Shown here: piece after piece, positions 54,163 to 64,000 of the stretch | Layout of the letters: each line of letters starts with the position of its first letter | Position numbering within the stretch: the stretch's first letter is position 1 | Assembly: GCA_963624695.1 (NCBI GenBank) | Contig: CAVFRH010000083.1 | Location: 28,185 to 92,184, forward strand | Origin: a bacterium | GTDB lineage: Bacteria; Bacillota; Clostridia; Lachnospirales; Lachnospiraceae | Direction of reading: 5' to 3' | Length of the DNA stretch: 64,000 nt | Position numbers and translations under genes: made by a program | Notes under the pieces: generated by a model | Seen by the model: the letters and a program-made list of their open reading frames with translations, nothing else | What the model was told of the DNA's origin: nothing | The model's database searches: none

Positions 54163-54196
54163 GTATAAAAAACAGCTCCGGAAATTTCCGGAGCTG
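54163..54196 (-). terminator. rho-independent terminator of the eda-containing operon
   Basis: Perfect 12-bp palindrome cagctccggaaa/tttccggagctg (54173-54196), followed on the minus strand by TTTTTTATACC. Confidence 0.65.
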
Positions 54197-54226
54197 CAAA
54201 TCTCTCTCTGTTCAATTCGATTCACA

Positions 54227-54853
54227 TCATTTTATGCTTTCAACCGCTTCCCGCGTCAGTTCTTCAATCTTGTCAAATTCGCCATTTTTGATCAATGAGT
54301 CTTTGACCATCCATGTTCCCCCGCAGGCTAAGACCTTGTCAAAAGCAAGATATTCCTTGACATTCTGAGCATTTATCCCACCCGTAGGCATAAAGCTGAG
54401 CATATGAAACGGGCCGGAAAAAGCCTTGATCGCAGGCAGACCTCCATTGACTTCAGCAGGAAAGAATTTTACAACATCGAGACCAAGTTCCAAAGCTTTT
54501 TCGATTTCACTGGCTGTCGCAACGCCTGGAAAAATCGGTATCTTCTTTTCCTGGCAATACAGAACCGTTTTTGGATTCAGTCCCGGACTTACAATGAATT
54601 TTGCTCCGGCTGCAATCGCCTCATCTACCTGATCTGTCGTAAGGACCGTTCCAGCCCCTACCAGCATATCCGGATATGCTTCCGTCATCTTTCGAATTGC
54701 CTCTCCTGCTGCCTCTGTCCGGAATGTAACCTCCGCACAAGCAAGGCCACCGCGCACTAAAGCTGCAGCCAATGAAACCGCATCCTTTGCGTCATCTATT
54801 TTAACAACCGGAACGATCCTTAATGCACGAATTTTTTCTTTTAATTCATTCAT
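54227..54853 (-). CDS. eda: 2-dehydro-3-deoxyphosphogluconate (KDPG) / 4-hydroxy-2-oxoglutarate aldolase
   Basis: Motifs VPVVKI, EVTFRT, GAGTVLT, and VKFFPAE (Schiff-base Lys region). Confidence 0.85.
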   Translation of the reverse strand: MNELKEKIRALRIVPVVKIDDAKDAVSLAAALVRGGLACAEVTFRTEAAGEAIRKMTEAYPDMLVGAGTVLTTDQVDEAIAAGAKFIVSPGLNPKTVLYCQEKKIPIFPGVATASEIEKALELGLDVVKFFPAEVNGGLPAIKAFSGPFHMLSFMPTGGINAQNVKEYLAFDKVLACGGTWMVKDSLIKNGEFDKIEELTREAVESIK

Positions 54854-54868
54854 AATGCTTTTCCTCCA

Positions 54869-55411
54869 TTACCAGTGTGTCTTTGTGGCTGTTTCGTTGG
54901 CTGTATGATCTCTGCGGCTCAAAAGAAGGCACAAAGCATCCAGTGTAATATGCAAACTCTGATCAAATAAGGAGCTAAGGAGCTGTATGGATCCTCTCTC
55001 ATTTCCCATATCACCTTTCACCGTTCCCGGAATAACGAGAACCGTATCCGCATTTTCCGTTAATGGAGATTCCTTCTTGCTGGTTACAGCGATCACCGTG
55101 CATCCTGCCTTCTTGGCTTTCGCTGCATCCCCAACTACACCGGCACTTTTTCCGGAACCGGAAACACCTATGAAGACATCCCCCTCAGCCATAGCCGGAG
55201 TAATTGTCTCACCAACAAAATAAACCGTATAGCCGATGTGCATAAGGCGCATCGCAAATCCTCTTGCCGAATATCCGGAACGGCCTTCTCCGGACACGAA
55301 TACCCGGTGTTCCTTATTAAGCTGCTTCATAACTGCCTCAAGTTCTTCTTCACTTACTTTTTCTATGACAGAATTGATTTCTGCCATGATATCTTTCAAA
55401 ACCTCTACCAT
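54869..55411 (-). CDS. hxlB: SIS-domain 6-phospho-3-hexuloisomerase-like protein
   Basis: GEGRSGYSARGFAMRLMHIG and GVSGSGKS SIS motifs. 180 aa. Adjacent to the HPS-like gene. Confidence 0.7.
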   Translation of the reverse strand: MVEVLKDIMAEINSVIEKVSEEELEAVMKQLNKEHRVFVSGEGRSGYSARGFAMRLMHIGYTVYFVGETITPAMAEGDVFIGVSGSGKSAGVVGDAAKAKKAGCTVIAVTSKKESPLTENADTVLVIPGTVKGDMGNERGSIQLLSSLFDQSLHITLDALCLLLSRRDHTANETATKTHW

Positions 55412-55412
55412 A

Positions 55413-56042
55413 TCAATACCTCTTTATTTCTTCTGAAAACAATCCGGTCTCTTTCTTGATATCCTCAGATTTGGTAATTGCACTTCCTACGATAACGATG
55501 TCTATGTTGTGTGCCGCCATCAGGGAAATATTGTTCAACTTAACGCCACCGGCCACGGCCAATTTTTTTACGCCGTTCATGCTTTCACACATATCCCTGA
55601 CCATTTCTTCCAGACCGTCGCCTTCCTTGTCTGCCGGAAGATGCAAGCAGAAAATAGCCTCCGGAAACTCCTTTTTCAAACTTTCCAAGCGATCCTTTGG
55701 CACTTCCAAAAGATCGATCATATATTCTTTTCCAAACTGCTCGGCCACCTGTGCACAGGACTTAATCGTTGTCAGCGATGAAAAGCCCATAACGGTTGCA
55801 ATGTCGCATCCGTTTTCATAAGCTTTCTGAAATTCATATGCTCCTTCATCGCAGGTTTTTATATCCGCCAGGATGCATTGTTCCGGAAATTTTTTCTTTA
55901 AGGTACCGACACTGCCGGCAAGGCCAAAATCCTTGATCAAAGAAGTTCCAACCTCTATAATATCTGCCCGGCCGGATGTAGCTGCAATGACATTTCCTGC
56001 AGACTCTACGGATACCCTGTCGATTGCCACCTGAAGTCTCAT
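55413..56042 (-). CDS. hxlA: 3-hexulose-6-phosphate synthase-like protein (OMP-decarboxylase superfamily; the alternative is a 3-keto-L-gulonate-6-P decarboxylase type)
   Basis: MRLQVAIDR, IIEVGTSLIK, LADIKTCDEG (closer to the HPS DLKTMDAG than the UlaD DAKIADAG), VAGGVK, IVIVGSAI. Confidence 0.65.
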   Translation of the reverse strand: MRLQVAIDRVSVESAGNVIAATSGRADIIEVGTSLIKDFGLAGSVGTLKKKFPEQCILADIKTCDEGAYEFQKAYENGCDIATVMGFSSLTTIKSCAQVAEQFGKEYMIDLLEVPKDRLESLKKEFPEAIFCLHLPADKEGDGLEEMVRDMCESMNGVKKLAVAGGVKLNNISLMAAHNIDIVIVGSAITKSEDIKKETGLFSEEIKRY

Positions 56043-56980
56043 TGTGCCTTCTCCTTCATATAACGATCCAGCTCTTCCTTTGTTGGAAGACCTTCATTGT
56101 CACCGGCTACAGATACCTGGATTGAACCGATTGCATTCCCACGTTTTATCATTTCCGGAAGACTTTTCTCTTCAAGCCATGCACTGATCACACCTACTGC
56201 AAATCCATCTCCTGCTCCTACAGTATCCACAACCTTCTCCACCTTATATCCTGAGTAAGCTGCTTTTCCCTCGTCACTGTCCACATAAGCACCACGGGAT
56301 CCGTCTTTGACAATGACGATCTTGGCTCCATTTTTTCGATAAAATTCTGCTATCTTTGCTGGCTCATCGCTTCCCATAAGAATTTTTCCTTCTCCGGTTC
56401 CCGGAAGTACGATATCTGCCTTGAAGGCAATATCATTGATCGTCTGAATCATCACATCCTGGCTCTCCCACAATGTCGGACGAAGATTTGGATCGAAGCA
56501 GACAAGCATCTGATTTTCTCTGGCTCGCTCAATCAGCCGATAGGTTGCTTCCCTGGTACTTTTGGAAAGTGCCGGAGCAATACCTGTGATATGGAGCACT
56601 TTCGCCCCATTTAAATCGATCTTGTCAATGTCTTCAACTGACATATGAGAAGCCGCACTGTTTCGGCGATAATAAAACACCTCCGGGTCACCCTCTGTCA
56701 CCTTGCTTTTAAGCTGATAGCCTGTAAAATGATCCGCATCTTTTGTAATGCATACATCAAGCCCTTCTGCCTTTAATCTGTTTTCGATGCTTGTTCCGAA
56801 CGGATCTGTTCCAAGTCTTGTAACATATGTTACGGAATGTCCCAGTCTTTTTAAGCCAATTGCAACATTCACTTCCGCTCCTGCGAGCATTCTCGTAAAC
56901 TCTTCCACCTCATAAAGCGGTCCGCAGGTCTTGGCCACGAACATCACCATGGGTTCTCCAAATAATATAACTTCCGACAT
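56039..56980 (-). CDS. kdgK: PfkB-family sugar kinase, 2-dehydro-3-deoxygluconokinase-like
   Basis: N-terminus VILFGEPMVMF..GAEVNVAIGL and C-terminal DTVGAGDGF motif. Co-operonic with eda. Confidence 0.75.
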   Translation of the reverse strand: MSEVILFGEPMVMFVAKTCGPLYEVEEFTRMLAGAEVNVAIGLKRLGHSVTYVTRLGTDPFGTSIENRLKAEGLDVCITKDADHFTGYQLKSKVTEGDPEVFYYRRNSAASHMSVEDIDKIDLNGAKVLHITGIAPALSKSTREATYRLIERARENQMLVCFDPNLRPTLWESQDVMIQTINDIAFKADIVLPGTGEGKILMGSDEPAKIAEFYRKNGAKIVIVKDGSRGAYVDSDEGKAAYSGYKVEKVVDTVGAGDGFAVGVISAWLEEKSLPEMIKRGNAIGSIQVSVAGDNEGLPTKEELDRYMKEKAQ

Positions 56981-56999
56981 AATTTACCTCTTTTTCAAG

Positions 57000-57980
57000 T
57001 TATGTCGTCTCCCTTAATACGAGCTCCGGAATAACCACTAAAGAAGCCGTTTCTTTTTTCTTAGAAAGTACTTCTAAAAGCAACTGAACCGTCAGTTCAC
57101 TGAGTACCTCACCCTTATTGTTCACCGTTGAAAGCATTGGACTGCAGATATAAGAATATTCCGAATTGTTGCATCCGATTAAAGCAATTTCCTCCGGAAT
57201 CTTCACACCACACTTGCGCCACTCATTCATCGCACCAACTGCCGTGAGATCCTCACCGAAGACGACACCGTCATAACCTTTTTTTCTCAATATGTGGGCT
57301 ACTTTTGCTCCACCTTCCACGCCGTATGCGGTTCGATATACATCCTCTTCCGGATGCTTACAGCCAAATGCTTTCATTGCTTTCAAAAAACCATCTCTCT
57401 TTCGGTCTGCTGCATTTGTGTATTTATCTATCACATAGGCTAATTTTTCCCGACCATTCTTTTGCAAATGCTCAACAGCCAGTTCCATTCCTCTTCCTTC
57501 ATCTACGATGACGGAATAAACATTTTTTCGGTCAAGAAATCCATTGGCCATAACAATCGGTATGTCATTCAAAAGATTAAGGGTTTCGTCATCACACAAA
57601 TGATTAAAAATAGATCCAACCAAAATAATGCCATCTACCTGCCTTTGTGCAAGCATCCGCAAATATTTCCGGCACTCCTCTTTTCCTTCGCCGGTATTGC
57701 AGACCAGAACCATATAACCTTCCTCTGAAAGTCGCTGCTCCATAATATAGGAAGTCAGAGCATAGTGTGGAACCCTGACATCCACGACAACAATCGCCAC
57801 TGTTTTCATGGATCCTGTCGCCAGTCCTCTGGCAATACCGCTAGGCTGATATTCATTGTGTTCAAGGACAGCCTGTATCTTTTCTCTTGTTTTTTCGCTT
57901 ACATATCCTTTGTTATTGATTACTCTTGATACGGTAGTAATGGATACTCCTGCTTCTTTTGCAATATCATATATGGTCAT
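57000..57980 (-). CDS. LacI-family transcriptional regulator
   Basis: HTH MTIYDIAKEAGVSITTVSRVINNKGYVSEKTREKI plus a periplasmic-binding-fold effector domain. Confidence 0.9.
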   Translation of the reverse strand: MTIYDIAKEAGVSITTVSRVINNKGYVSEKTREKIQAVLEHNEYQPSGIARGLATGSMKTVAIVVVDVRVPHYALTSYIMEQRLSEEGYMVLVCNTGEGKEECRKYLRMLAQRQVDGIILVGSIFNHLCDDETLNLLNDIPIVMANGFLDRKNVYSVIVDEGRGMELAVEHLQKNGREKLAYVIDKYTNAADRKRDGFLKAMKAFGCKHPEEDVYRTAYGVEGGAKVAHILRKKGYDGVVFGEDLTAVGAMNEWRKCGVKIPEEIALIGCNNSEYSYICSPMLSTVNNKGEVLSELTVQLLLEVLSKKKETASLVVIPELVLRETT

Positions 57981-58084
57981 AATCTATTCCCGTTCTTTCT
58001 CGTATTGATTGCAAAAGTATCATAAACAATCTACCCCTAATTTTCAAGAAGAGCAGAAAATAAGAAATTCGGGATTCTTCTAAC

Positions 58085-58543
58085 TTAATTCACCTTGACT
58101 TTTACAACTATTTTTTTTACATGACATGGCTCTTTCCCGATACATCTGGGCTGATGACCATCGTCAGGTGATACTACAGCAAAATCTCCTTTCTTCAAAT
58201 GAAGACGACCGCTTATTTGGGGAAACTGGTAAAACTCCAGATCGCATTTTTCATCATATCCGGTATCTTTTTCCAGTTCCTTGACAGAAATAAAACCAAA
58301 ATACTCTTCACCCTCTGCCATATACTGAATGTCAAAATATTTCCTGTGTGACTCAAACTTACACTCTTCAAAAGGTTTCGTCACATACTCCTGAACCTCC
58401 GCAAAAATATCATCTCCATCGATTTCAATTTTTCCTTCATGCAGAGAGGAAAAATCTGTTTCTTTCAAAAAAGCAAACGCCTTTTGAAATCTTTCTCCCA
58501 GATAGTCATATTTCTGCGCATTTGTAATTGTCGTTGTTAACAT
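58085..58543 (-). CDS. YhcH/YjgK/YiaL-family (DUF386) protein
   Basis: 152-aa cupin-like protein. Family-typical features (..FESHRKYFDIQY..GEE.., ..DFAVVSPDDGHQP). ATG 58543 is preceded by AAGAGGTG. Confidence 0.65.
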   Translation of the reverse strand: MLTTTITNAQKYDYLGERFQKAFAFLKETDFSSLHEGKIEIDGDDIFAEVQEYVTKPFEECKFESHRKYFDIQYMAEGEEYFGFISVKELEKDTGYDEKCDLEFYQFPQISGRLHLKKGDFAVVSPDDGHQPRCIGKEPCHVKKIVVKVKVN

Positions 58544-58599
58544 TGACACCTCTTTTCTAATATGGGAACCGGCACCTGCAAGCTGCGTAAATTTTTCAT

Positions 58600-59274
58600 T
58601 TACTTTTCTTTTCTGTCTCGAATTCCTGCCGCTTCCATTATCTCTTCAAATAAAGCCTCTGCTGCCTCGCTGTTATAGCTGTACATGAGAAGGACATCTA
58701 ACACGTATGGCGAAAAATCGATCCCGGATAGTTTCTTTGCAAAGGCCATTGCCGCCATTTCGCTTAAGGCTATTAGCCTTGATTTATTCGAAAATGGTTT
58801 TCGCCACAGTTCGATCTTTTCTGTCTGTGTAAAGATTTCCTTCCGTTTTCTGTACTCGATCCCATGAAATAATTCATGGGCAATCAGGATTTCTTTTAGA
58901 TCGGTATCTGGAAAAAGCATGCAAAGATCCTTGCTCGTGATTAAATCTTCTGCCTTTTTGACACAGTCCATATACACCGTAATTTCACTAGGTTCCGTGT
59001 ACTGGGCAAAAATGACATGCCCGCCGCCTGACGGAATAAGGGGTAGCTTCACCTCAAATCCCAGCTCTTTGCTTATCTCTTCTGCTGTCATCTGGGGATA
59101 TTCTTCTCTTAGGAGCATGGCTTCATCATTTCCGCATTTTATCGCACGTTTTGTATAAGATAACTTCTGTTCAGAAGTCAATTTGCGCTCAAGCGGTTCA
59201 TGATAAAAAGCATATCCGCCCCACTGCTCATCGGTCAGAGTTAGAAGTTCCTCTATCATGCTTTTGATCTTCAT
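58600..59274 (-). CDS. hypothetical protein with an HExxH zinc-metallopeptidase-like motif
   Basis: ILIAHELFHGIEYRK. GGAAAGGAGAGG RBS. No family recognised. Confidence 0.5.
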   Translation of the reverse strand: MKIKSMIEELLTLTDEQWGGYAFYHEPLERKLTSEQKLSYTKRAIKCGNDEAMLLREEYPQMTAEEISKELGFEVKLPLIPSGGGHVIFAQYTEPSEITVYMDCVKKAEDLITSKDLCMLFPDTDLKEILIAHELFHGIEYRKRKEIFTQTEKIELWRKPFSNKSRLIALSEMAAMAFAKKLSGIDFSPYVLDVLLMYSYNSEAAEALFEEIMEAAGIRDRKEK

Positions 59275-59306
59275 CTGCCCTCTCCTTTCCCGATCTGTCG
59301 AAATTT

Positions 59307-61436
59307 TTATGCCTGACTCTTAGCACCTACGACAACGATATCCATATTCTGATCCAGGCTCTGAAGTTCTACGTCCATCAACATAAGAACCTGTTCCAAT
59401 TCTCCGGATCCATTGAAATCCATTACTCTTGCACCGGCACAGATGTAATAATCCGGTCTTAAAATGGCGTCCGCTTTGTAAATTGCCAATTCTTCCCACA
59501 ATTTTGAAACCACACTTCTGTATCCGGAAGCCTTAGCCGCAATGGCAACACCATCTGTTCTCTGTACCTTTATGAAGCCTTTTTTATCGAGGATTCGAAT
59601 TGGCTTGCGATTTTTCTCTTCGGCCTGATAAACGTAGAAGTTCGGGATCCTGCATACCAGCTTGATCTGATCTTCCTTCTTTCTAAGATCAGCCGCAGCC
59701 AGTTTTCTCGCCTCTTCCTCCGTACATTCTTTCATCAGATCAGCGGTCTTAACTTCAGTAGAACCAAGCGCAATTGCCGTAAGCTTAGAGGTCTGCGGAT
59801 CAATTTCGATGTGTACTTCAACCGTATCCGGTGATGCGCCACTCTCTACTGCTTTATCGACTGCTTCCGCCTTTATGCTTCTGATGTCCTCCGCTGTTGG
59901 ATTTGGTACAACTCTTTCCACAACATCACGTACCATAGCCAGAGCTACACCAATAGAAGATATAACCTCTGCATTTTCCGGTACACTGTAATTAATGTTC
60001 ATTTTCTGAGCACAGAAGCCAATCAGTGATGTAGCGCCTCCGCCGACACCAACCAGAGCAATCTGGTCATGCTCAAGCTTATATTTATCTGCCAGTTCCA
60101 AGATAACTGGGCTGATTTTCTCATAGGCTCTCGTCAAAATCTGCGTTGCCACTTCCTCAACGGTCACACCAAGATAATCTGCCACCGGTTTCATGGCCTT
60201 GCGTGCTGAGTTTGCATTTCCATAAGAAAAATGCTCTGGCTTTACCAAGCCCAGTACATTGGCCGCACAGGAATTCGTGATTGTAATTCTCTTTCCGCTT
60301 TTCAACTTGATGGCTACATAATCTGACGGATCACCCTCTTTTGGAGAAAACAGCTCAAGCTGCGGGTCAACAATCTCTTCCTCCGGTGTAAATACCGCAT
60401 AATCCAGACCAGCGATATGAGCAGATCTTGGCCCTACATCTGACACACCACTTTTACTCAGACGAATCATACTTCCACCGGCAACACCTAAAACCCGGAC
60501 ATCCAAAGAGGTAATATAGGTCCGATGTCCTCCGACGATGGAATAATCAATCGCCGGCCGTCCATTTTTGATTACACCTATATTCGTTGTGGTACCGCCT
60601 ACCTCAAAGTAAACACCGTTGGAAGCACGCAGATACATCAACGAGCCCATAACAGAAGCTGCAGGACCAGACAGCATCGTCAAAACCGGACGTTTTTTCA
60701 TTTCATTGATTTCCATGACTCCGCCATCTCCACGCATGATCATAAGCGGAACCTTAACTCCGGCATTTCTTACAGACTGTTCGGTCTGATTGGCTGTGTT
60801 GAGCATTTTGGGAAGAATGCTGGCATTAATCGCTGCTGTCCTCGTTCTTCTTGTCAGGCCATACAGCTTCGTGATGTCGGAAGCGATACTCGTTTCCATT
60901 CCCATTTCACCCTTTGTTACATTGTAAATTGCCTGTTCTGAGCTCATATCGTCTACACCGAAGGCTTCCGAAGCAACAAAGACCTGTGCACCCTTGTTTT
61001 TCAGTTTTTTTGCTGCCTGCAGGATGTTATCGTGATTCAAATCTTTTTCTTTGATAAATTCATTGCAGATTTCAATCTTTCTTCCGGATCCAAGGTCTAT
61101 ATTGTGCAGCTTTGTCTGAGCCTTCGCTAAGAGTCCTTCCAGTCCGCCCTGAGAGCTTCCAATGACTCCTACCTTTGCCACATCGCCTTCGATCAATGCA
61201 TTTGTTGCCTGGGTTGTACTGTGTGCCACAAAGACAACATCTTCCGGATCGATCTTATTTTCCTTCAGACAATTTTCAAATGCCTGTACAACCCCGGCTG
61301 CTACGCCCGAAACATCATCATGTGTCGTTTTAACGGATGATTTTCCGATAATTTCCTGTGTTGCATTATCAATCGCTACTGCTTTCGTATGGGTACCGCC
61401 TACATCGATACCCATTCTAACTTTACGTTTACTCAT
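59307..61436 (-). CDS. hydantoinase/oxoprolinase-family (ASKHA-fold ATPase) protein
   Basis: N-terminal GIDVGGTHTKAV phosphate-1 motif and a second ASKHA half (LVGVGGGATSLIG). About 709 aa. ATG 61436 is preceded by GGAGGATG; alternative start at 61451. Confidence 0.75.
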   Translation of the reverse strand: MSKRKVRMGIDVGGTHTKAVAIDNATQEIIGKSSVKTTHDDVSGVAAGVVQAFENCLKENKIDPEDVVFVAHSTTQATNALIEGDVAKVGVIGSSQGGLEGLLAKAQTKLHNIDLGSGRKIEICNEFIKEKDLNHDNILQAAKKLKNKGAQVFVASEAFGVDDMSSEQAIYNVTKGEMGMETSIASDITKLYGLTRRTRTAAINASILPKMLNTANQTEQSVRNAGVKVPLMIMRGDGGVMEINEMKKRPVLTMLSGPAASVMGSLMYLRASNGVYFEVGGTTTNIGVIKNGRPAIDYSIVGGHRTYITSLDVRVLGVAGGSMIRLSKSGVSDVGPRSAHIAGLDYAVFTPEEEIVDPQLELFSPKEGDPSDYVAIKLKSGKRITITNSCAANVLGLVKPEHFSYGNANSARKAMKPVADYLGVTVEEVATQILTRAYEKISPVILELADKYKLEHDQIALVGVGGGATSLIGFCAQKMNINYSVPENAEVISSIGVALAMVRDVVERVVPNPTAEDIRSIKAEAVDKAVESGASPDTVEVHIEIDPQTSKLTAIALGSTEVKTADLMKECTEEEARKLAAADLRKKEDQIKLVCRIPNFYVYQAEEKNRKPIRILDKKGFIKVQRTDGVAIAAKASGYRSVVSKLWEELAIYKADAILRPDYYICAGARVMDFNGSGELEQVLMLMDVELQSLDQNMDIVVVGAKSQA

Positions 61437-61463
61437 TCTCACATCCTCCATCTGTATCCTGTT

Positions 61464-62816
61464 TTAACCAAACATGAAGTAAACCATTGCCTGAAGAATA
61501 ATGCAGATAATCCAGCCTACAACTGCACTGAGTTTCAGATAATCCTTCGTGGATACCTTGGCATAGTTAACACCCCATATAATCCAGGACTGTGTAATAC
61601 AGCATGAAACGTTCATAACCGTACTCGGAATAATGATCAGCGGAGCCAGATATGCTGTTGAGAATCCAATTCCCTTTAAAATTCCAAGCGTTGCTGCACC
61701 GCAGCCAAATAAGGTAAACGGTCCACGGAACATACCAAGAGGAGCCAGAACTGCAAAAGCAATGCTGATGATCAAGGTATTGTTTGGGATAATTCCTCCC
61801 AGCAGAGCATTGAAATACGGTACGCACAATTCAGCTGCTTTGTTGAACATGGGAAGAACAAGCAGGAAGCCAACCAACGGAGCGGTATCAACCACACCAT
61901 CAAAGAAATCCTTGTTTACCATACGGCAGGTCTGACCCCAGCCTTTGATCTTTCCGCAGGTGATCAATGCATAAACGCTTCCTATGATAAATCCCAGGAT
62001 AATCGGAACATTGAAAACAATAAGCAAAACAACCGGAATAATCGGTGAAATCAGAGCAATACCCGGAGCATTGTCTCCACGGCGTTTCTTCTTGTCTACC
62101 GGTGCTGTTGCTGCCCAGCTGTGTACTTTCTTTTTGTGACTTAAAACAATGACCATGATGATAATGACAATCATCTGAATGATCATAGCGTAGATACCCC
62201 AGGAAACGTGCTGTTCGTATGGATATAAGGTAGTTCCGTCCTCTCCGAGGAAGAATGCCGAATACTGCCCATATAAAACCGGATTGACAAACATACCGGC
62301 GCCAACACTTAACATAAAGGCACAGGTTGCCAGCACCTTCGGAATACCAAGGGACATGAAAATCGGAAGAACAATGACACCAATCGCAACGACTGCACCG
62401 GCACCGAAGATGGATGAGAAGCATGCTGTTGTTACGATACAAAGCAATATACATGTGATTGCCGGCTTGTCACCGCCAAGTTCCGTTGTTGTTCGAATCA
62501 AAGTAGATGCTATGCCTGTATTCATAAGTACTCGTCCGAACCAGGCACCAAAGATAACATTAACGAGTGTTGCACCCCAGCCTTCTGGTCCGCTCTGAAA
62601 TACTTTCTTCAAAGCTTCCTGCCAGGTAATGCTGATCGAATCCGCATTTGCGGAAATAAAATCTGGATTTGTTACGAATGTATTTCCGATCATCGGCAAT
62701 ACAGTCCATATAATGGCCATAACAAAGATTCCAAGCATAAGGTTTCCACCGCGAACGGCATAGACAACCAAACCGAAAAAGGAAACCAATAGTAGAATTC
62801 CAATTACATACTCCAT
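61464..62816 (-). CDS. ion-transporter-superfamily permease (GntP/CitMHS/DcuC-like; subfamily unresolved)
   Basis: 450 aa, at least 11 TM, AGGAGGG RBS. First gene of the LacI-controlled locus. Confidence 0.55.
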   Translation of the reverse strand: MEYVIGILLLVSFFGLVVYAVRGGNLMLGIFVMAIIWTVLPMIGNTFVTNPDFISANADSISITWQEALKKVFQSGPEGWGATLVNVIFGAWFGRVLMNTGIASTLIRTTTELGGDKPAITCILLCIVTTACFSSIFGAGAVVAIGVIVLPIFMSLGIPKVLATCAFMLSVGAGMFVNPVLYGQYSAFFLGEDGTTLYPYEQHVSWGIYAMIIQMIVIIIMVIVLSHKKKVHSWAATAPVDKKKRRGDNAPGIALISPIIPVVLLIVFNVPIILGFIIGSVYALITCGKIKGWGQTCRMVNKDFFDGVVDTAPLVGFLLVLPMFNKAAELCVPYFNALLGGIIPNNTLIISIAFAVLAPLGMFRGPFTLFGCGAATLGILKGIGFSTAYLAPLIIIPSTVMNVSCCITQSWIIWGVNYAKVSTKDYLKLSAVVGWIICIILQAMVYFMFG

Positions 62817-62883: not shown

Positions 62884-62901
62884 TGTGTAAGCGCTTTCAC
62901 A
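62884..62901. promoter_or_regulatory. LacI/CcpA-type palindromic operator (cre-like), proximal
   Basis: TGTGTAAGCGCTTTCACA contains TGTAAGCGCTTTCA, which matches the cre consensus WTGNAANCGNWNNCW. It lies about 70-85 nt upstream of the permease ATG. Confidence 0.55.
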
Positions 62902-63026
62902 TCTTAAGTATACTTTTTCACCTTTAGATGTCAATATTATTTTATTCTTTTGCCCAAAAATCAGCATTCTGTTATAATTTATGTGTGCAATTTTATCAAA
63001 TCATCACAAGACTTGTCTTTGTTTGT

Positions 63027-63043
63027 TGTGAAAGCGCTAACAC
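63027..63043. promoter_or_regulatory. LacI/CcpA-type palindromic operator, distal
   Basis: TGTGAAAGCGCTAACAC. The reverse complement of the 18-nt extended site is 16/18 identical to the proximal site. Centre-to-centre distance is about 142 bp. Confidence 0.5.
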
Positions 63044-63114
63044 GTTTTTCTTTCATTTTCTCTCCTCCTGCAAGACTTGTCGGTTGCAGCTCTTCACAGA
63101 TGCACGCTGGCAGC

Positions 63115-63145
63115 AAAAGAGACGGCCGCGCGGACCGTCTCTTTT
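63115..63145 (-). terminator. terminator after the right-edge hypothetical gene
   Basis: aaaagagacgg / ccgcgcgga / ccgtctctttt, an 11-bp stem with flanking A and T runs, so it can act on either strand. Confidence 0.55.
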
Positions 63146-63163: not shown

Positions 63164-64000
63164 TTATGAGTCTACTTTCTCCACAAAGAGAAGTTTATAA
63201 CCTTCCGGATCTTTTTTTGTTTCATCGATACGTTTACTTACATCTACATCCATCATCTTCAGATCTTTGTTGATGCCATAATCCAGGAAATCTGCATGTG
63301 CCTCTCCACACTGTACATGGTAAAGATTTAAACGAACAATCGATGTTGCATTTTCTCTCATATCTCCGTTTGGCGGAAAATAACTGACAACACGTGACAG
63401 TGTTGCTCCGTCTTTTTTTAAATCAAGTGTGGTTGCAAGGATATACTTTCCATCACAGTAGAGTCCCAAATTAACATAATCTGTATCTTCTTTTATTACA
63501 TCAGCAGCCGGTTTTCCATCAATGGTAAGATACTTGATCAGACTACTGTAAACGGTTTCCTCACTGTTCTTTTCAATCAAGGTATTCGCAAGCTTGTCAT
63601 AATCTGATTTTTCAAGGCTGTTTGCATAAGAAGACTCGTCTTGAGTACCTTCGTTGAGTTTTTTGTCCTCCTGTCTAAAATAGCTATTCAGAACCCACAT
63701 GTTTGGCATTACATACTGAGGTTTCAATGTAAGGTCTGCTGCAAAAAGATTAAACACATCCTTTGTATCCAGGCAGGATTCAACTTCTTTCACTCTATTG
63801 GCTAAGATGTTGTCTGTTTCCAGTGACTTTACATTCAATTTCATCTTTGTATCATCCATCCAATAGCAGATGCCGATTCTGTCTTCACTGTTATATTCTG
63901 CAATTTCTGTCTCGAGAGCACCTTCTACTTTTTCATAAATGCCGGCCAGCTCTGTATGCTGATTCACCAGATCACTTAACTGATTTTCTGCAGCTGTAAT
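63164..64000 (-). CDS. hypothetical protein, probably N-terminally truncated by the window edge
   Basis: The ORF-track ORF starts at GTG 63967, but the frame stays open to position 64000 (..ITAAENQLSDLVNQHTEL..). No family recognised. Confidence 0.5.
   Translation of the reverse strand: MTAAENQLSDLVNQHTELAGIYEKVEGALETEIAEYNSEDRIGICYWMDDTKMKLNVKSLETDNILANRVKEVESCLDTKDVFNLFAADLTLKPQYVMPNMWVLNSYFRQEDKKLNEGTQDESSYANSLEKSDYDKLANTLIEKNSEETVYSSLIKYLTIDGKPAADVIKEDTDYVNLGLYCDGKYILATTLDLKKDGATLSRVVSYFPPNGDMRENATSIVRLNLYHVQCGEAHADFLDYGINKDLKMMDVDVSKRIDETKKDPEGYKLLFVEKVDS

Follow-up and report, generated by a model that had tools for sequence, protein, structure and literature searches.

The window examined here is a 64,000-nucleotide stretch of a Lachnospiraceae genome (contig CAVFRH010000083.1 of assembly GCA_963624695.1), which contains a locus of nine genes linking an anion-type permease, an ATPase of the HyuA type and a small protein with an HExxH motif to enzymes of sugar-acid metabolism. 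The original prediction, which was made from the sequence alone, had proposed nine same-strand genes for this region; all nine open reading frames (ORFs) are present on the minus strand where it had placed them, and their families were confirmed by Pfam and NCBIfam. Behind the permease, the ATPase and the HExxH protein, hereafter the trio, lie genes for a DUF386 protein of the YhcH/YiaL family, a LacI-type regulator, a PfkB kinase resembling the 2-keto-3-deoxygluconate (KDG) kinase KdgK, a relative of 3-hexulose-6-phosphate synthase (HPS), a 6-phospho-3-hexuloisomerase (PHI) and the aldolase Eda. Read along the minus strand, the genes and signals of the locus are as follows (cre, catabolite-responsive element; aa, amino acids; nt, nucleotides).

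63029..63042: distal cre/LacI-type operator TGAAAGCGCTAACA, an exact match to TGWAANCGNTNWCA.
62907..62934, minus strand: sigma-70-type promoter TTGACA-16-TATACT, 11 of 12 consensus positions, the best in the region.
62886..62899: proximal cre/LacI-type operator TGAAAGCGCTTACA, immediately downstream of the -10 box.
61464-62816, minus strand: permease gene, 450 aa, 11-12 transmembrane segments, no Pfam match, weak DcuC match.
59307-61451, minus strand: HyuA-like ATPase gene, domains Hydant_A_N and Hydantoinase_A, ORF of 714 aa.
58600-59274, minus strand: HExxH protein gene, 224 aa, no Pfam or NCBIfam family.
58085-58549, minus strand: DUF386 (YhcH/YiaL) gene, PF04074 at 157 bits.
58019..58047, minus strand: candidate internal promoter TTGAAA-17-TATGAT before lacI, 10 of 12 positions in a consensus scan, weak evidence.
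57000-57980, minus strand: lacI, PF00356 and Peripla_BP domains.
56039-56980, minus strand: PfkB/KdgK-like kinase gene, PF00294.
55413-56042, minus strand: HPS-like gene, TIGR03128 at 176.7 bits, cut-off 200.
54869-55411, minus strand: PHI gene (SIS protein), TIGR03127 at 187.8 bits, cut-off 160.
54227-54853, minus strand: eda, PF01081, TIGR01182 at 274 bits, PRK05718 at 290 bits.
54172..54197, minus strand: intrinsic terminator, 11-bp stem with seven GC pairs and a T run, 30 nt past the eda stop.

The nine genes form one operon, as judged from these sequence signals and from a published expression study of Ruminococcus gnavus that is described below. As the one-operon reading of the original prediction implied, the genes are bracketed by a promoter, paired operators and a single terminator. 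The promoter lies 90 nt upstream of the permease start, the terminator downstream of eda is the only strong one on the minus strand of the region, and the intergenic spacing ranges from -4 to 50 nt, the sole exception being the 104 nt ahead of lacI. LacI-type control had also been proposed and is supported by the lacI gene together with cre/LacI operators at the promoter, a combination that is typical of LacI/CcpA-controlled operons and from which binding is predicted; however, lacI is the fifth gene of the row and not its head. The cre/LacI palindrome gives four strand-wise matches at three sites in the window, compared with 0.13 expected, and two of the three sites flank the permease promoter. 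An operator match is also found upstream of the permease in eight other loci with the same arrangement (Type II, see below), with the identical 14-mer TGAAAGCGCTTACA in six of the eight, and the operators of these loci are often paired, with 120-154 bp between them. A near-identical operator core, TGAAAGCGCTT(T/G)CA, precedes the Ldh_2 gene in seven loci of a sister arrangement (Type I), and the LacI protein of the window is 42% identical to a LacI of Type I, whereas the next paralogue encoded by the same genome reaches 28%. We propose that the LacI-family repressor, possibly together with CcpA, would repress the operon via the two cre-like operators.

Two minor features lie upstream of the promoter. 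A 25-codon ORF (MKEKRVSAFTTNKDKSCDDLIKLHT, 62979-63056, minus strand) with a strong GGAGGAG ribosome-binding site is located between both operators and includes the distal one; it could encode a leader peptide or could have arisen by chance. Further upstream, an ORF without Pfam or NCBIfam family (63164-64000, minus strand) is open at the edge of the window, about 1.4 kb from the end of the contig, and has at its end a separate GC-rich hairpin (about 63115-63143) that would insulate the operon from the upstream gene.

The second gene of the operon appears, by sequence, to encode a HyuA-type ATPase of the ASKHA superfamily that works without a HyuB partner. It had been described as a protein of 709 aa; the ORF itself comprises 714 aa, but homologues of 709 aa indicate that translation probably starts five codons in, and among the matches listed no homologue exceeds 725 aa. 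The protein scores 70.8 bits against PF05378 and 214.8 bits against PF01968, and its phosphate-1, phosphate-2 and adenosine motifs are intact (DVGGTHTK, residues 16-23; EVGGTTT, 283-289; GVGGGA, 468-473). Its nearest relative of solved structure is N-methylhydantoinase, which aligns with residues 12-345 only (E 4e-30). The best matches, which are 90-93% identical, come from uncultured Mediterraneibacter-like bacteria; the protein matches and the cre-type operators assign the organism to the Lachnospiraceae. Across genera, the ATPase is 75-93% identical, compared with 64-90% for the permease and 46-70% for the HExxH protein. No match to Hydantoinase_B (PF02538) was found in the 97.9%-complete genome, nor at the locus. 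In the HyuA/HyuB family, which includes caprolactamase and related carboxylases, phosphorylation of the substrate by the A subunit is followed by completion of the reaction at the metal-bearing B subunit, and a tunnel joins the two sites (PMC8453981). The window ATPase shares with N-methylhydantoinase, OplAB, CapAB and the acetone and acetophenone carboxylases the A-type domains and the ASKHA motifs; in addition, its neighbour gene encodes a metal-binding motif, which echoes the division into a phosphorylating and a metal subunit. In contrast to these enzymes, its partner is an unrelated HExxH protein in a genome without HyuB, the similarity to solved A subunits is low and restricted to the first half, and ATPases of this type are nearly always coupled to an anion permease and occur in the context of sugar acids rather than nitrogen compounds. 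The breakdown of creatinine or N-methylhydantoin was considered and rejected, given the sugar-acid context and the lack of HyuB.

Profile and model comparisons suggest that the HExxH protein represents a new family and is an obligate partner of this ATPase clade. The motif reads HELFH (residues 133-137); H133, E134, H137, E140, E152, E155 and a PFSNxS motif are invariant, and a GGGHVxFAQ motif is invariant or nearly so. The AlphaFold 2 (AF2) model of the protein has a mean predicted local distance difference test score (pLDDT) of 91.8 and shows a faint structural likeness to the minimal gluzincins selecase, PprI/IrrE and MATCAP, with a probability of at most 0.23. An exhaustive profile search retrieved 949 clusters (50% identity), of which 576 reached E <=1e-10, and all 150 clusters listed are stand-alone proteins of 111-320 aa, none of which is fused to the ATPase among the matches listed. 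Divergent ATPase paralogues (42-47% identity) likewise have a permease and a protein of 181-195 aa as neighbours, the latter with the same HE(L/Y)FH and LSE(I/V)GA motifs. The permease, whose AF2 model is of moderate confidence (pLDDT 68.8), is predicted to be an anion-type transporter with the elevator fold of the ion transporter (IT) superfamily: in Foldseek searches, the model matches a model of MleN, the M subunits of tripartite ATP-independent periplasmic (TRAP) transporters (IseQM, SiaQM), VcINDY and other members of the DASS family, AbgT and ArsB (E 1e-6 to 2e-3, probability 1.00).

The gene content given in the original prediction is correct. Among the downstream enzymes, PHI and Eda score above their cut-offs; the HPS-like and KdgK-like proteins fall below the respective equivalog cut-offs. 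The DUF386 protein, a member of a family that was present in 51 of 100 loci surveyed, scores 127 bits against TIGR00022 and 104 bits against the NanQ equivalog, under the cut-off of 160, and is probably an anomerase or ring opener of ulosonic acids. The kinase reaches 212.9 bits against a model of KDG/KDGal kinases and 112 bits against KdgK (NF052444), for both of which the cut-off is 400; its nearest solved protein is the unassigned PfkB kinase 4du5 (299.6 bits), and the KDG kinases 2v78/2var and 1v19 score 160-162 bits. Eda, on the other hand, is above the curated cut-offs of both models (156 for TIGR01182 and 241 for PRK05718). The PHI protein is a single-domain SIS protein of 180 aa; a FrlD/FrlB-type or Fra-type route for Amadori products was rejected on account of this single domain and its equivalog-level score.

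The HPS-like protein belongs to the orotidine-5'-monophosphate (OMP) decarboxylase suprafamily and retains the conserved E, D-x-K-x-x-D and H residues; homologues are named 'OMP decarboxylase / HUMPS family protein' by NCBI. Another member of this suprafamily, 3-keto-L-gulonate-6-phosphate decarboxylase (KGPDC), is a sister of HPS that removes a carboxyl group. Four positions are said to separate the two enzymes, reportedly following Yew et al. in 2005. At these positions (112, 139, 169 and 192 of UlaD), the window protein has D/A/A/S, compared with D/(I,T,L)/A/(S,S,G) in solved HPS and E/R/T/R in SgbH of V. cholerae, and its scores against the KGPDC models are well below the cut-offs (66 vs 294 bits for PRK13305, 92 vs 250 for PRK13306). 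An L-series decarboxylase of the UlaD/SgbH type was therefore rejected for the window protein, which has none of the four signature residues and is encoded in a genome without UlaE.

To place the operon in context, about 120 related loci were gathered by exact-protein look-ups and from 300 genomes of the same family, species-representative genomes and metagenomes, and their neighbour genes were clustered. In the 100 loci surveyed, the permease, ATPase and HExxH protein occur in this order in 85, 89 and 86 loci, respectively, and are nearly always adjacent: the permease gene directly precedes the ATPase gene in nearly all loci, and the HExxH gene follows it in 86 of 89. Four arrangements of the accessory genes can be distinguished (HAD, haloacid dehalogenase; SDR, short-chain dehydrogenase/reductase; ADH, alcohol dehydrogenase).

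Type I: LacI-Ldh_2-[HAD]-trio-[DUF386]-[UxuA]; 27 loci in the ATPase tree.
Type II, the arrangement of the window: trio-[DUF386]-[LacI]-PfkB-HPS-PHI-[Eda]; about 20 genera.
Type III: GntR-controlled, with Ldh_2, DUF386, SDR, PanE, a PF04199 'cyclase', an M28 peptidase and a Zn-ADH; 15 loci in the ATPase tree.
Type IV: DUF386-GFO oxidoreductase-trio; 3 loci, in Clostridium nigeriense and one uncultured Clostridium.

Type II loci are carried by Sellimonas, Blautia, Bariatricus, Bilifractor, Roseburia hominis, rumen Oscillospiraceae, a metagenome-assembled genome (MAG) of the Anaerovoracaceae and the Negativicute Selenomonas, and the locus of Roseburia hominis consists of the identical nine genes in identical order. 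HPS orthologues (E <=1e-30) were found in five of 301 genomes of the family, and in four of these, they adjoin the trio. The fifth genome (G174) lacks the trio and carries the order Ldh_2-TRAP(DctPQM)-DUF386-Eda fragment-PfkB-HPS-PHI-UxuA-PfkB, which joins accessory genes of Types I and II in an order close to that of E. coli yiaK-S. The main group of Type II loci forms one clade (15 rows, SH-aLRT 99) of a maximum-likelihood ATPase tree and is nested in the diversity of Type I; a further pair of Type II loci (G264, G137), which is distant from this clade, shows that PfkB-HPS-PHI became linked to the trio at least two times. The locus is a recurrent, regulated operon and a new version of known kinds of sugar-acid operon and HyuA-family enzyme.

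Within the back end, PfkB-HPS-PHI behaves as a constant block. The kinase gene is located immediately before HPS-PHI in nearly every locus that has this pair, and the block accompanies the trio in many loci. In G174 and Stomatobaculum, which have no trio at the block, it stands with a TRAP transporter, and in a metagenomic locus (L154), it stands with a single related permease; no combination of the block with a phosphotransferase system (PTS), an ABC or a major facilitator superfamily importer of sugars was seen in the loci compared. Eda is a looser member, as it was not found in or beside the block in Selenomonas, Stomatobaculum, L152 and L154. The neighbour of the Selenomonas locus is RpiB, and AP_endonuc_2 proteins, members of the Pfam family of UlaE, recur beside PfkB-HPS-PHI. 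The two kinases of G174 are both KdgK-like and nearest to KdgK of T. maritima, which fits a division of labour in which one serves KDG and the other the HPS/PHI branch. In Type I loci, the Ldh_2 protein is an equivalog-level YiaK (447 bits, cut-off 316) and the dehydratase an equivalog-level UxuA; these loci often contain a HAD phosphatase and no kinase. This YiaK and the gene order of G174 support the link to YiaL/SgbH keto-sugar-acid metabolism that the original prediction had drawn. Neither HPS nor PHI was found anywhere in the genomes of Type I sisters whose ATPase is 76-81% identical, and Eda is encoded elsewhere in the genome in all five Type I/III genomes tested. In one genome (G053), only LacI-KdgK-Eda is located beside the trio. 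The TRAP binding proteins of sister loci have about 30% identity to generic uronate/aldonate binders only, which does not name their ligand.

Profile searches of the window genome yielded none of UxaC, KduI, UxaA (altronate/galactarate dehydratase), UxuA, Ldh_2/YiaK, Edd and Gnd, nor an orthologue of UlaE/SgbU (best score 23.6 bits, cut-off 272). The only GH88 match is weak (18.8 bits, under the cut-off of 26.6), and a route from hexuronates, pectin or glycosaminoglycans was rejected in view of this match and of the missing UxaC, KduI, UxaA and UxuA. Judging from this gene content, the KDG that KdgK and Eda would use can reach the window genome only via the present operon.

The distribution of the trio suggests an accessory trait. 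HExxH relatives were found in 229 species-representative genomes, almost all of Clostridia. The trio is present in at least 229 genomes at species level, mostly of gut and rumen Clostridia, among them Blautia, Sellimonas, Mediterraneibacter, Roseburia, Enterocloster, Hungatella, Gemmiger and Faecalimonas. Of 300 genera sampled across the family, 24 carry an ATPase orthologue; the one genome of the same genus (G292) has neither this gene nor HPS. The system looks like a horizontally mobile trait, and the mobile appearance of the locus may mean that it affects fitness at the level of strains. In Subdoligranulum variabile (L002/L003, 2119-14874), a Type I locus is cargo of a mobile element, located between a serine recombinase and HTH gene on one side and Mob_Pre/RepA_N genes on the other. 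A Lachnospirales MAG (JBJFFW010000043.1, L109/L110) carries two complete tandem copies of LacI-Ldh_2-trio-DUF386-UxuA-HAD on one contig. Loci of the Clostridia type, whose ATPase is up to 92% identical to that of the window, also occur in bins labelled Bacteroidaceae, B. thetaiotaomicron, Coriobacteriaceae and Succinivibrio (L057, L069, L119, L123); this probably reflects mis-binning, or else a recent transfer.

Published expression data are available for a cluster of similar composition. In R. gnavus ATCC 29149, a six-gene cluster was the most strongly induced operon in the presence of 0.1% agaro-oligosaccharides (log2 fold change 4.1-4.35); it is annotated as encoding DUF386, a hydantoinase, a hypothetical 'peptidase', a mannonate dehydratase, YiaK and a hypothetical protein, and the authors assigned no function to it (PMC11581127). 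The gene families are those of Type I loci, as compared by annotation rather than by sequence-level orthology. The induction could be specific, or it could reflect a relief of catabolite repression, which is conceivable because the operators are cre-like. The original prediction knew of no described pathway with this combination of genes, and none was found in the literature searched; apart from the R. gnavus study, the search yielded no other paper on the gene combination and nothing on its function, on the use of ascorbate by Clostridia or on 2-ketogluconate phenotypes of carriers.

What these observations say about the chemistry begins with the transporters. TRAP systems and IT permeases import organic acids. 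The association of PfkB-HPS-PHI with one or the other makes it very likely that the substrate of the kinase is a carboxylated sugar; the block thus very probably acts on such a compound. The trio is an uncharacterised, widespread module. The HPS-type barrel is the only enzyme present that could remove a carboxyl group. Both the front ends and the back ends are interchangeable. We tentatively favour the view, to which we would give somewhat less than an even chance, that the nine-gene operon breaks down an acidic sugar derivative, that the trio releases a free 2-keto-hexonate, and that PfkB, PHI and HPS convert it to ribulose-5-phosphate and CO2.

The individual steps of this proposal would be the following. 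The elevator-type anion permease would import the compound. The ATPase and the HExxH metalloprotein would pair physically as a two-component, ATP-dependent enzyme in which the latter takes the place of the metal-bearing HyuB; by analogy with HyuA/HyuB, this pair might open a ring and thereby free the 2-keto-hexonate from a masked, resonance-stabilised form. The DUF386 protein would then open or anomerise the hemiketal ring, and the PfkB kinase would form the 6-phosphate. The PHI-type isomerase would move the carbonyl group from C2 to C3, upon which the HPS-type enzyme could cleave the C1-C2 bond and release CO2 instead of formaldehyde, thereby yielding ribulose-5-phosphate. Eda and the same kinase might, in addition, handle 2-keto-3-deoxy acids of the KDG type. 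In the sister loci, the same intermediate would be reduced by the YiaK-type 2-keto reductase to D-mannonate and converted by UxuA to KDG. A redox-neutral route to ribulose-5-phosphate would fit the gap left by the enzymes that are missing from the window genome.

With respect to stereochemistry, the D-arabino series, that is, 2-keto-D-gluconate, would be the favoured intermediate. 2-Keto-D-gluconate-6-phosphate is fructose-6-phosphate oxidised at C1; a YiaK-type reduction generates the C2 configuration that is common to L-gulonate and D-mannonate, and D-mannonate is the substrate of UxuA. The D-arabino series fits best because of the analogy to fructose-6-phosphate, the product D-ribulose-5-phosphate, the RpiB gene in Selenomonas and the co-occurrence of YiaK and UxuA in Type I loci. 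Ascorbate-type enediol-lactones are ring forms of 2-keto-hexonates and are anions. Being anionic, they would suit an anion permease, and they may represent the best concrete candidate for the masked form. The sialic-acid helpers NanQ (YhcH) and NanY (YjhC) offer a related parallel: DUF386 is the NanQ family, and in some sister or paralogous loci, DUF386 is found together with a GFO/IDH/MocA oxidoreductase, NanE or a NanA-like aldolase, which points to ulosonic acids and masked ring forms. The window itself differs in that it contains no sialic-acid genes and its DUF386 protein remains below the NanQ cut-off. Paralogue loci with the orders NanE-GFO-ATPase-HExxH-permease and LacI/DHDPS-permease-ATPase-HExxH have such sialic-acid-like contexts and, together with DUF386, suggest ulosonic acids and their masked ring forms as a common theme.

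Several points weigh against this proposal. The HPS-type residues and a PHI above its cut-off make the textbook formaldehyde reaction the more conservative reading of the back end, and Eda is explained only loosely, as the window genome has no known source of KDG. The ATPase and HExxH protein may be dispensable for the chemistry, since the place of the trio can be taken by a TRAP transporter or a single permease. The hydrolase nature of the HExxH protein is not supported by structural comparison, as a Foldseek search with its model gave no neighbour in the Protein Data Bank (PDB) at E < 0.001 and a PDB profile search was also empty. The stereochemical clues conflict: YiaK and AP_endonuc_2 indicate the L-gulonate series, whereas UxuA, the HPS-type residues and RpiB indicate the D series. 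Moreover, we know of no abundant natural source of masked 2-keto-D-gluconate in the gut.

A bolder version of the proposal holds that the ATPase and HExxH protein constitute a new two-component, ATP-driven ring opener, that strictly anaerobic gut Clostridia use it to ferment ascorbate-type enediol-lactones (vitamin C or analogues) without a PTS, and that HPS and PHI run a 'reverse ribulose monophosphate (RuMP)' sequence on a 2-keto-6-phosphohexonate, via its 3-keto form, to a pentulose-5-phosphate and CO2. In this full form, we regard it as unlikely. If true, the reverse-RuMP reading would be a redox-neutral sugar-acid route that has not been described before. As a matter of speculation, 3,6-anhydro-L-galactonate, 5-hydroxymethyl-2-furoate (formally a twice-dehydrated KDG), pyruvylated mannose from xanthan and sugar-acid lactams may also be named as substrates. 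Solving the function of the locus would name a nutrient for which these commensals compete, provide the first reaction of a HyuA-type ATPase that works without HyuB, give a function to an unannotated protein family of about 950 sequence clusters and test a second role of HPS and PHI in sugar-acid fermentation.

The likeliest of the alternatives, although we consider it an unlikely one, is that the trio is a device for uptake: the permease would import the same acid sugar as the TRAP systems, and the ATPase would trap it or energise its transport, for example by phosphorylating the incoming sugar acid, and the HExxH protein would serve it as an adaptor or a phosphohydrolase. This would explain why the three genes of the TRAP system DctPQM stand in for the three of the trio in G174 and Stomatobaculum, and a lone permease in L154, and it agrees with the almost absolute adjacency of permease and ATPase genes. 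ArsB is a carrier of the IT superfamily that can work with the soluble ATPase ArsA, and the fold of the permease is common to TRAP M subunits and ArsB. A role of the ATPase in phosphorylation would also be in line with Type I loci, which often have a HAD phosphatase and no kinase, and with the many sugar and carboxylate kinases among ASKHA proteins. However, we know of no HyuA-type protein that acts as a transport ATPase or as a simple sugar kinase, and a kinase would not be expected to have a conserved partner with a metal motif. Type II loci already have the PfkB kinase, and the ATPase is far more conserved than the permease or the HExxH protein, which is a better fit to a complex catalyst than to an accessory component.

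According to a second alternative, the back end would follow the textbook: the front end imports or yields KDG, formaldehyde is set free at some point along the route, KdgK and Eda convert KDG to pyruvate and glyceraldehyde-3-phosphate, and HPS and PHI fix the formaldehyde on ribulose-5-phosphate to give fructose-6-phosphate. The locus indeed resembles the HxlA/HxlB systems of methylotrophs, Bacillus and archaea in its adjacent HPS-type and PHI-type genes and in the HPS-type active-site residues, which are present at all four discriminating positions, and it resembles the end of the semi-phosphorylative Entner-Doudoroff pathway in its canonical Eda and KdgK-like kinase, to which the sister loci add a true UxuA. 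The scores of PHI and Eda above their cut-offs, the lack of any other KDG source in the window genome and the LacI-KdgK-Eda genes as sole partners of the trio in G053 point in the same direction. In Roseburia hominis (CP159990.1, L138, 11291-17968), glyA, gcvT, gcvH, gcvP and lplA, genes of one-carbon metabolism, lie directly behind the Type II operon; these neighbours have been counted in favour of formaldehyde, and they may be a coincidence or a hint of a C1 unit. On the other hand, no encoded enzyme plausibly releases formaldehyde, and Selenomonas, Stomatobaculum and L154 have PfkB-HPS-PHI without Eda in or beside the block. Neither the fixed order kinase-HPS-PHI nor the second KdgK-like kinase of G174 would be expected, and Type I sister genomes do without HPS and PHI. 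In contrast to HxlA/HxlB, the window HPS is under its cut-off and located behind a KdgK-like kinase, with an acid-sugar transporter nearby; window-type loci have LacI control instead of the formaldehyde regulator HxlR and no methylotrophy genes, and they belong to strict anaerobes without Gnd and Edd. Compared with the Entner-Doudoroff end, the window genome lacks the usual KDG-forming enzymes, and its kinase is well under the KdgK equivalogs. On balance, this explanation appears rather improbable.

A third alternative, which we consider quite improbable, is an analogue of the ula and yia-sgb systems of the L series, in which L-ascorbate or 2,3-diketo-L-gulonate would be converted to 3-keto-L-gulonate-6-phosphate, decarboxylated to L-xylulose-5-phosphate by the HPS-like enzyme and epimerised to D-xylulose-5-phosphate. 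This reading is favoured by the equivalog-level YiaK of the sister loci (447 vs 316 bits) and by the gene order of G174, which mirrors yiaK-(TRAP)-yiaL-kinase-sgbH-like. With E. coli yiaK-S and ula, the window shares the YiaL family in the form of DUF386 and an enzyme of the OMP decarboxylase suprafamily after a kinase; YiaK orthologues, TRAP and almost the same order are shared by the sister loci only. Furthermore, AP_endonuc_2 is recurrent beside PfkB-HPS-PHI, and ascorbate is the sole abundant natural enediol-lactone. Against these similarities stands the barrel, which has none of the four KGPDC-type residues and the HPS-type ones instead. From the yiaK-S set (YiaK, YiaL, YiaMNO, LyxK, SgbH, SgbU, SgbE), the window contains the YiaL family only; the kinase is PfkB and not FGGY, a SIS isomerase occupies the place of SgbU/UlaE, the genome has neither a UlaE/SgbU orthologue nor YiaK, and the ATPase-HExxH pair has no counterpart in these operons. 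The UxuA of the sister loci is a D-mannonate enzyme, and the RpiB neighbour in Selenomonas fits D-ribulose-5-phosphate.

Finally, the idea that the trio, DUF386, KdgK/Eda and HPS/PHI are unrelated modules side by side, or, as the original prediction had put its own possible refutation, that the trio part is a separate and already characterised module adjacent by chance, is hardly credible: the trio is separable, joins several back ends and is followed by a 104-nt gap with a weak promoter match before lacI, but it is not a characterised module, the gene order is shared by about 20 genera, one of them a Negativicute, the join came about on at least two occasions, HPS is almost confined to trio loci, and a single terminator and conserved paired operators frame the genes.

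A few observations concern the surroundings of the related loci. In a paralogue operon with NanE, GFO and the ATPase (L056, G269:C36, 5492-6892), two paralogous proteins of 225-230 aa without Pfam family carry the motifs GGADA(I/V)K and VVEAS. Another locus (L041, G020:C53, 8384-9271) encodes a fusion of DUF386 with a glyoxalase of the vicinal oxygen chelate (VOC) type; its neighbours around the trio are a second DUF386, a PCC-domain protein, an IclR regulator and an HpcH-type aldolase. In Lacrimispora (L001/L006), giant cell-surface polysaccharide lyases of family PL8 (1571-2023 aa, with CBM96 and Big_4 domains) adjoin the Type I locus, which may indicate a link to lyase-derived acid sugars or may be a coincidence.

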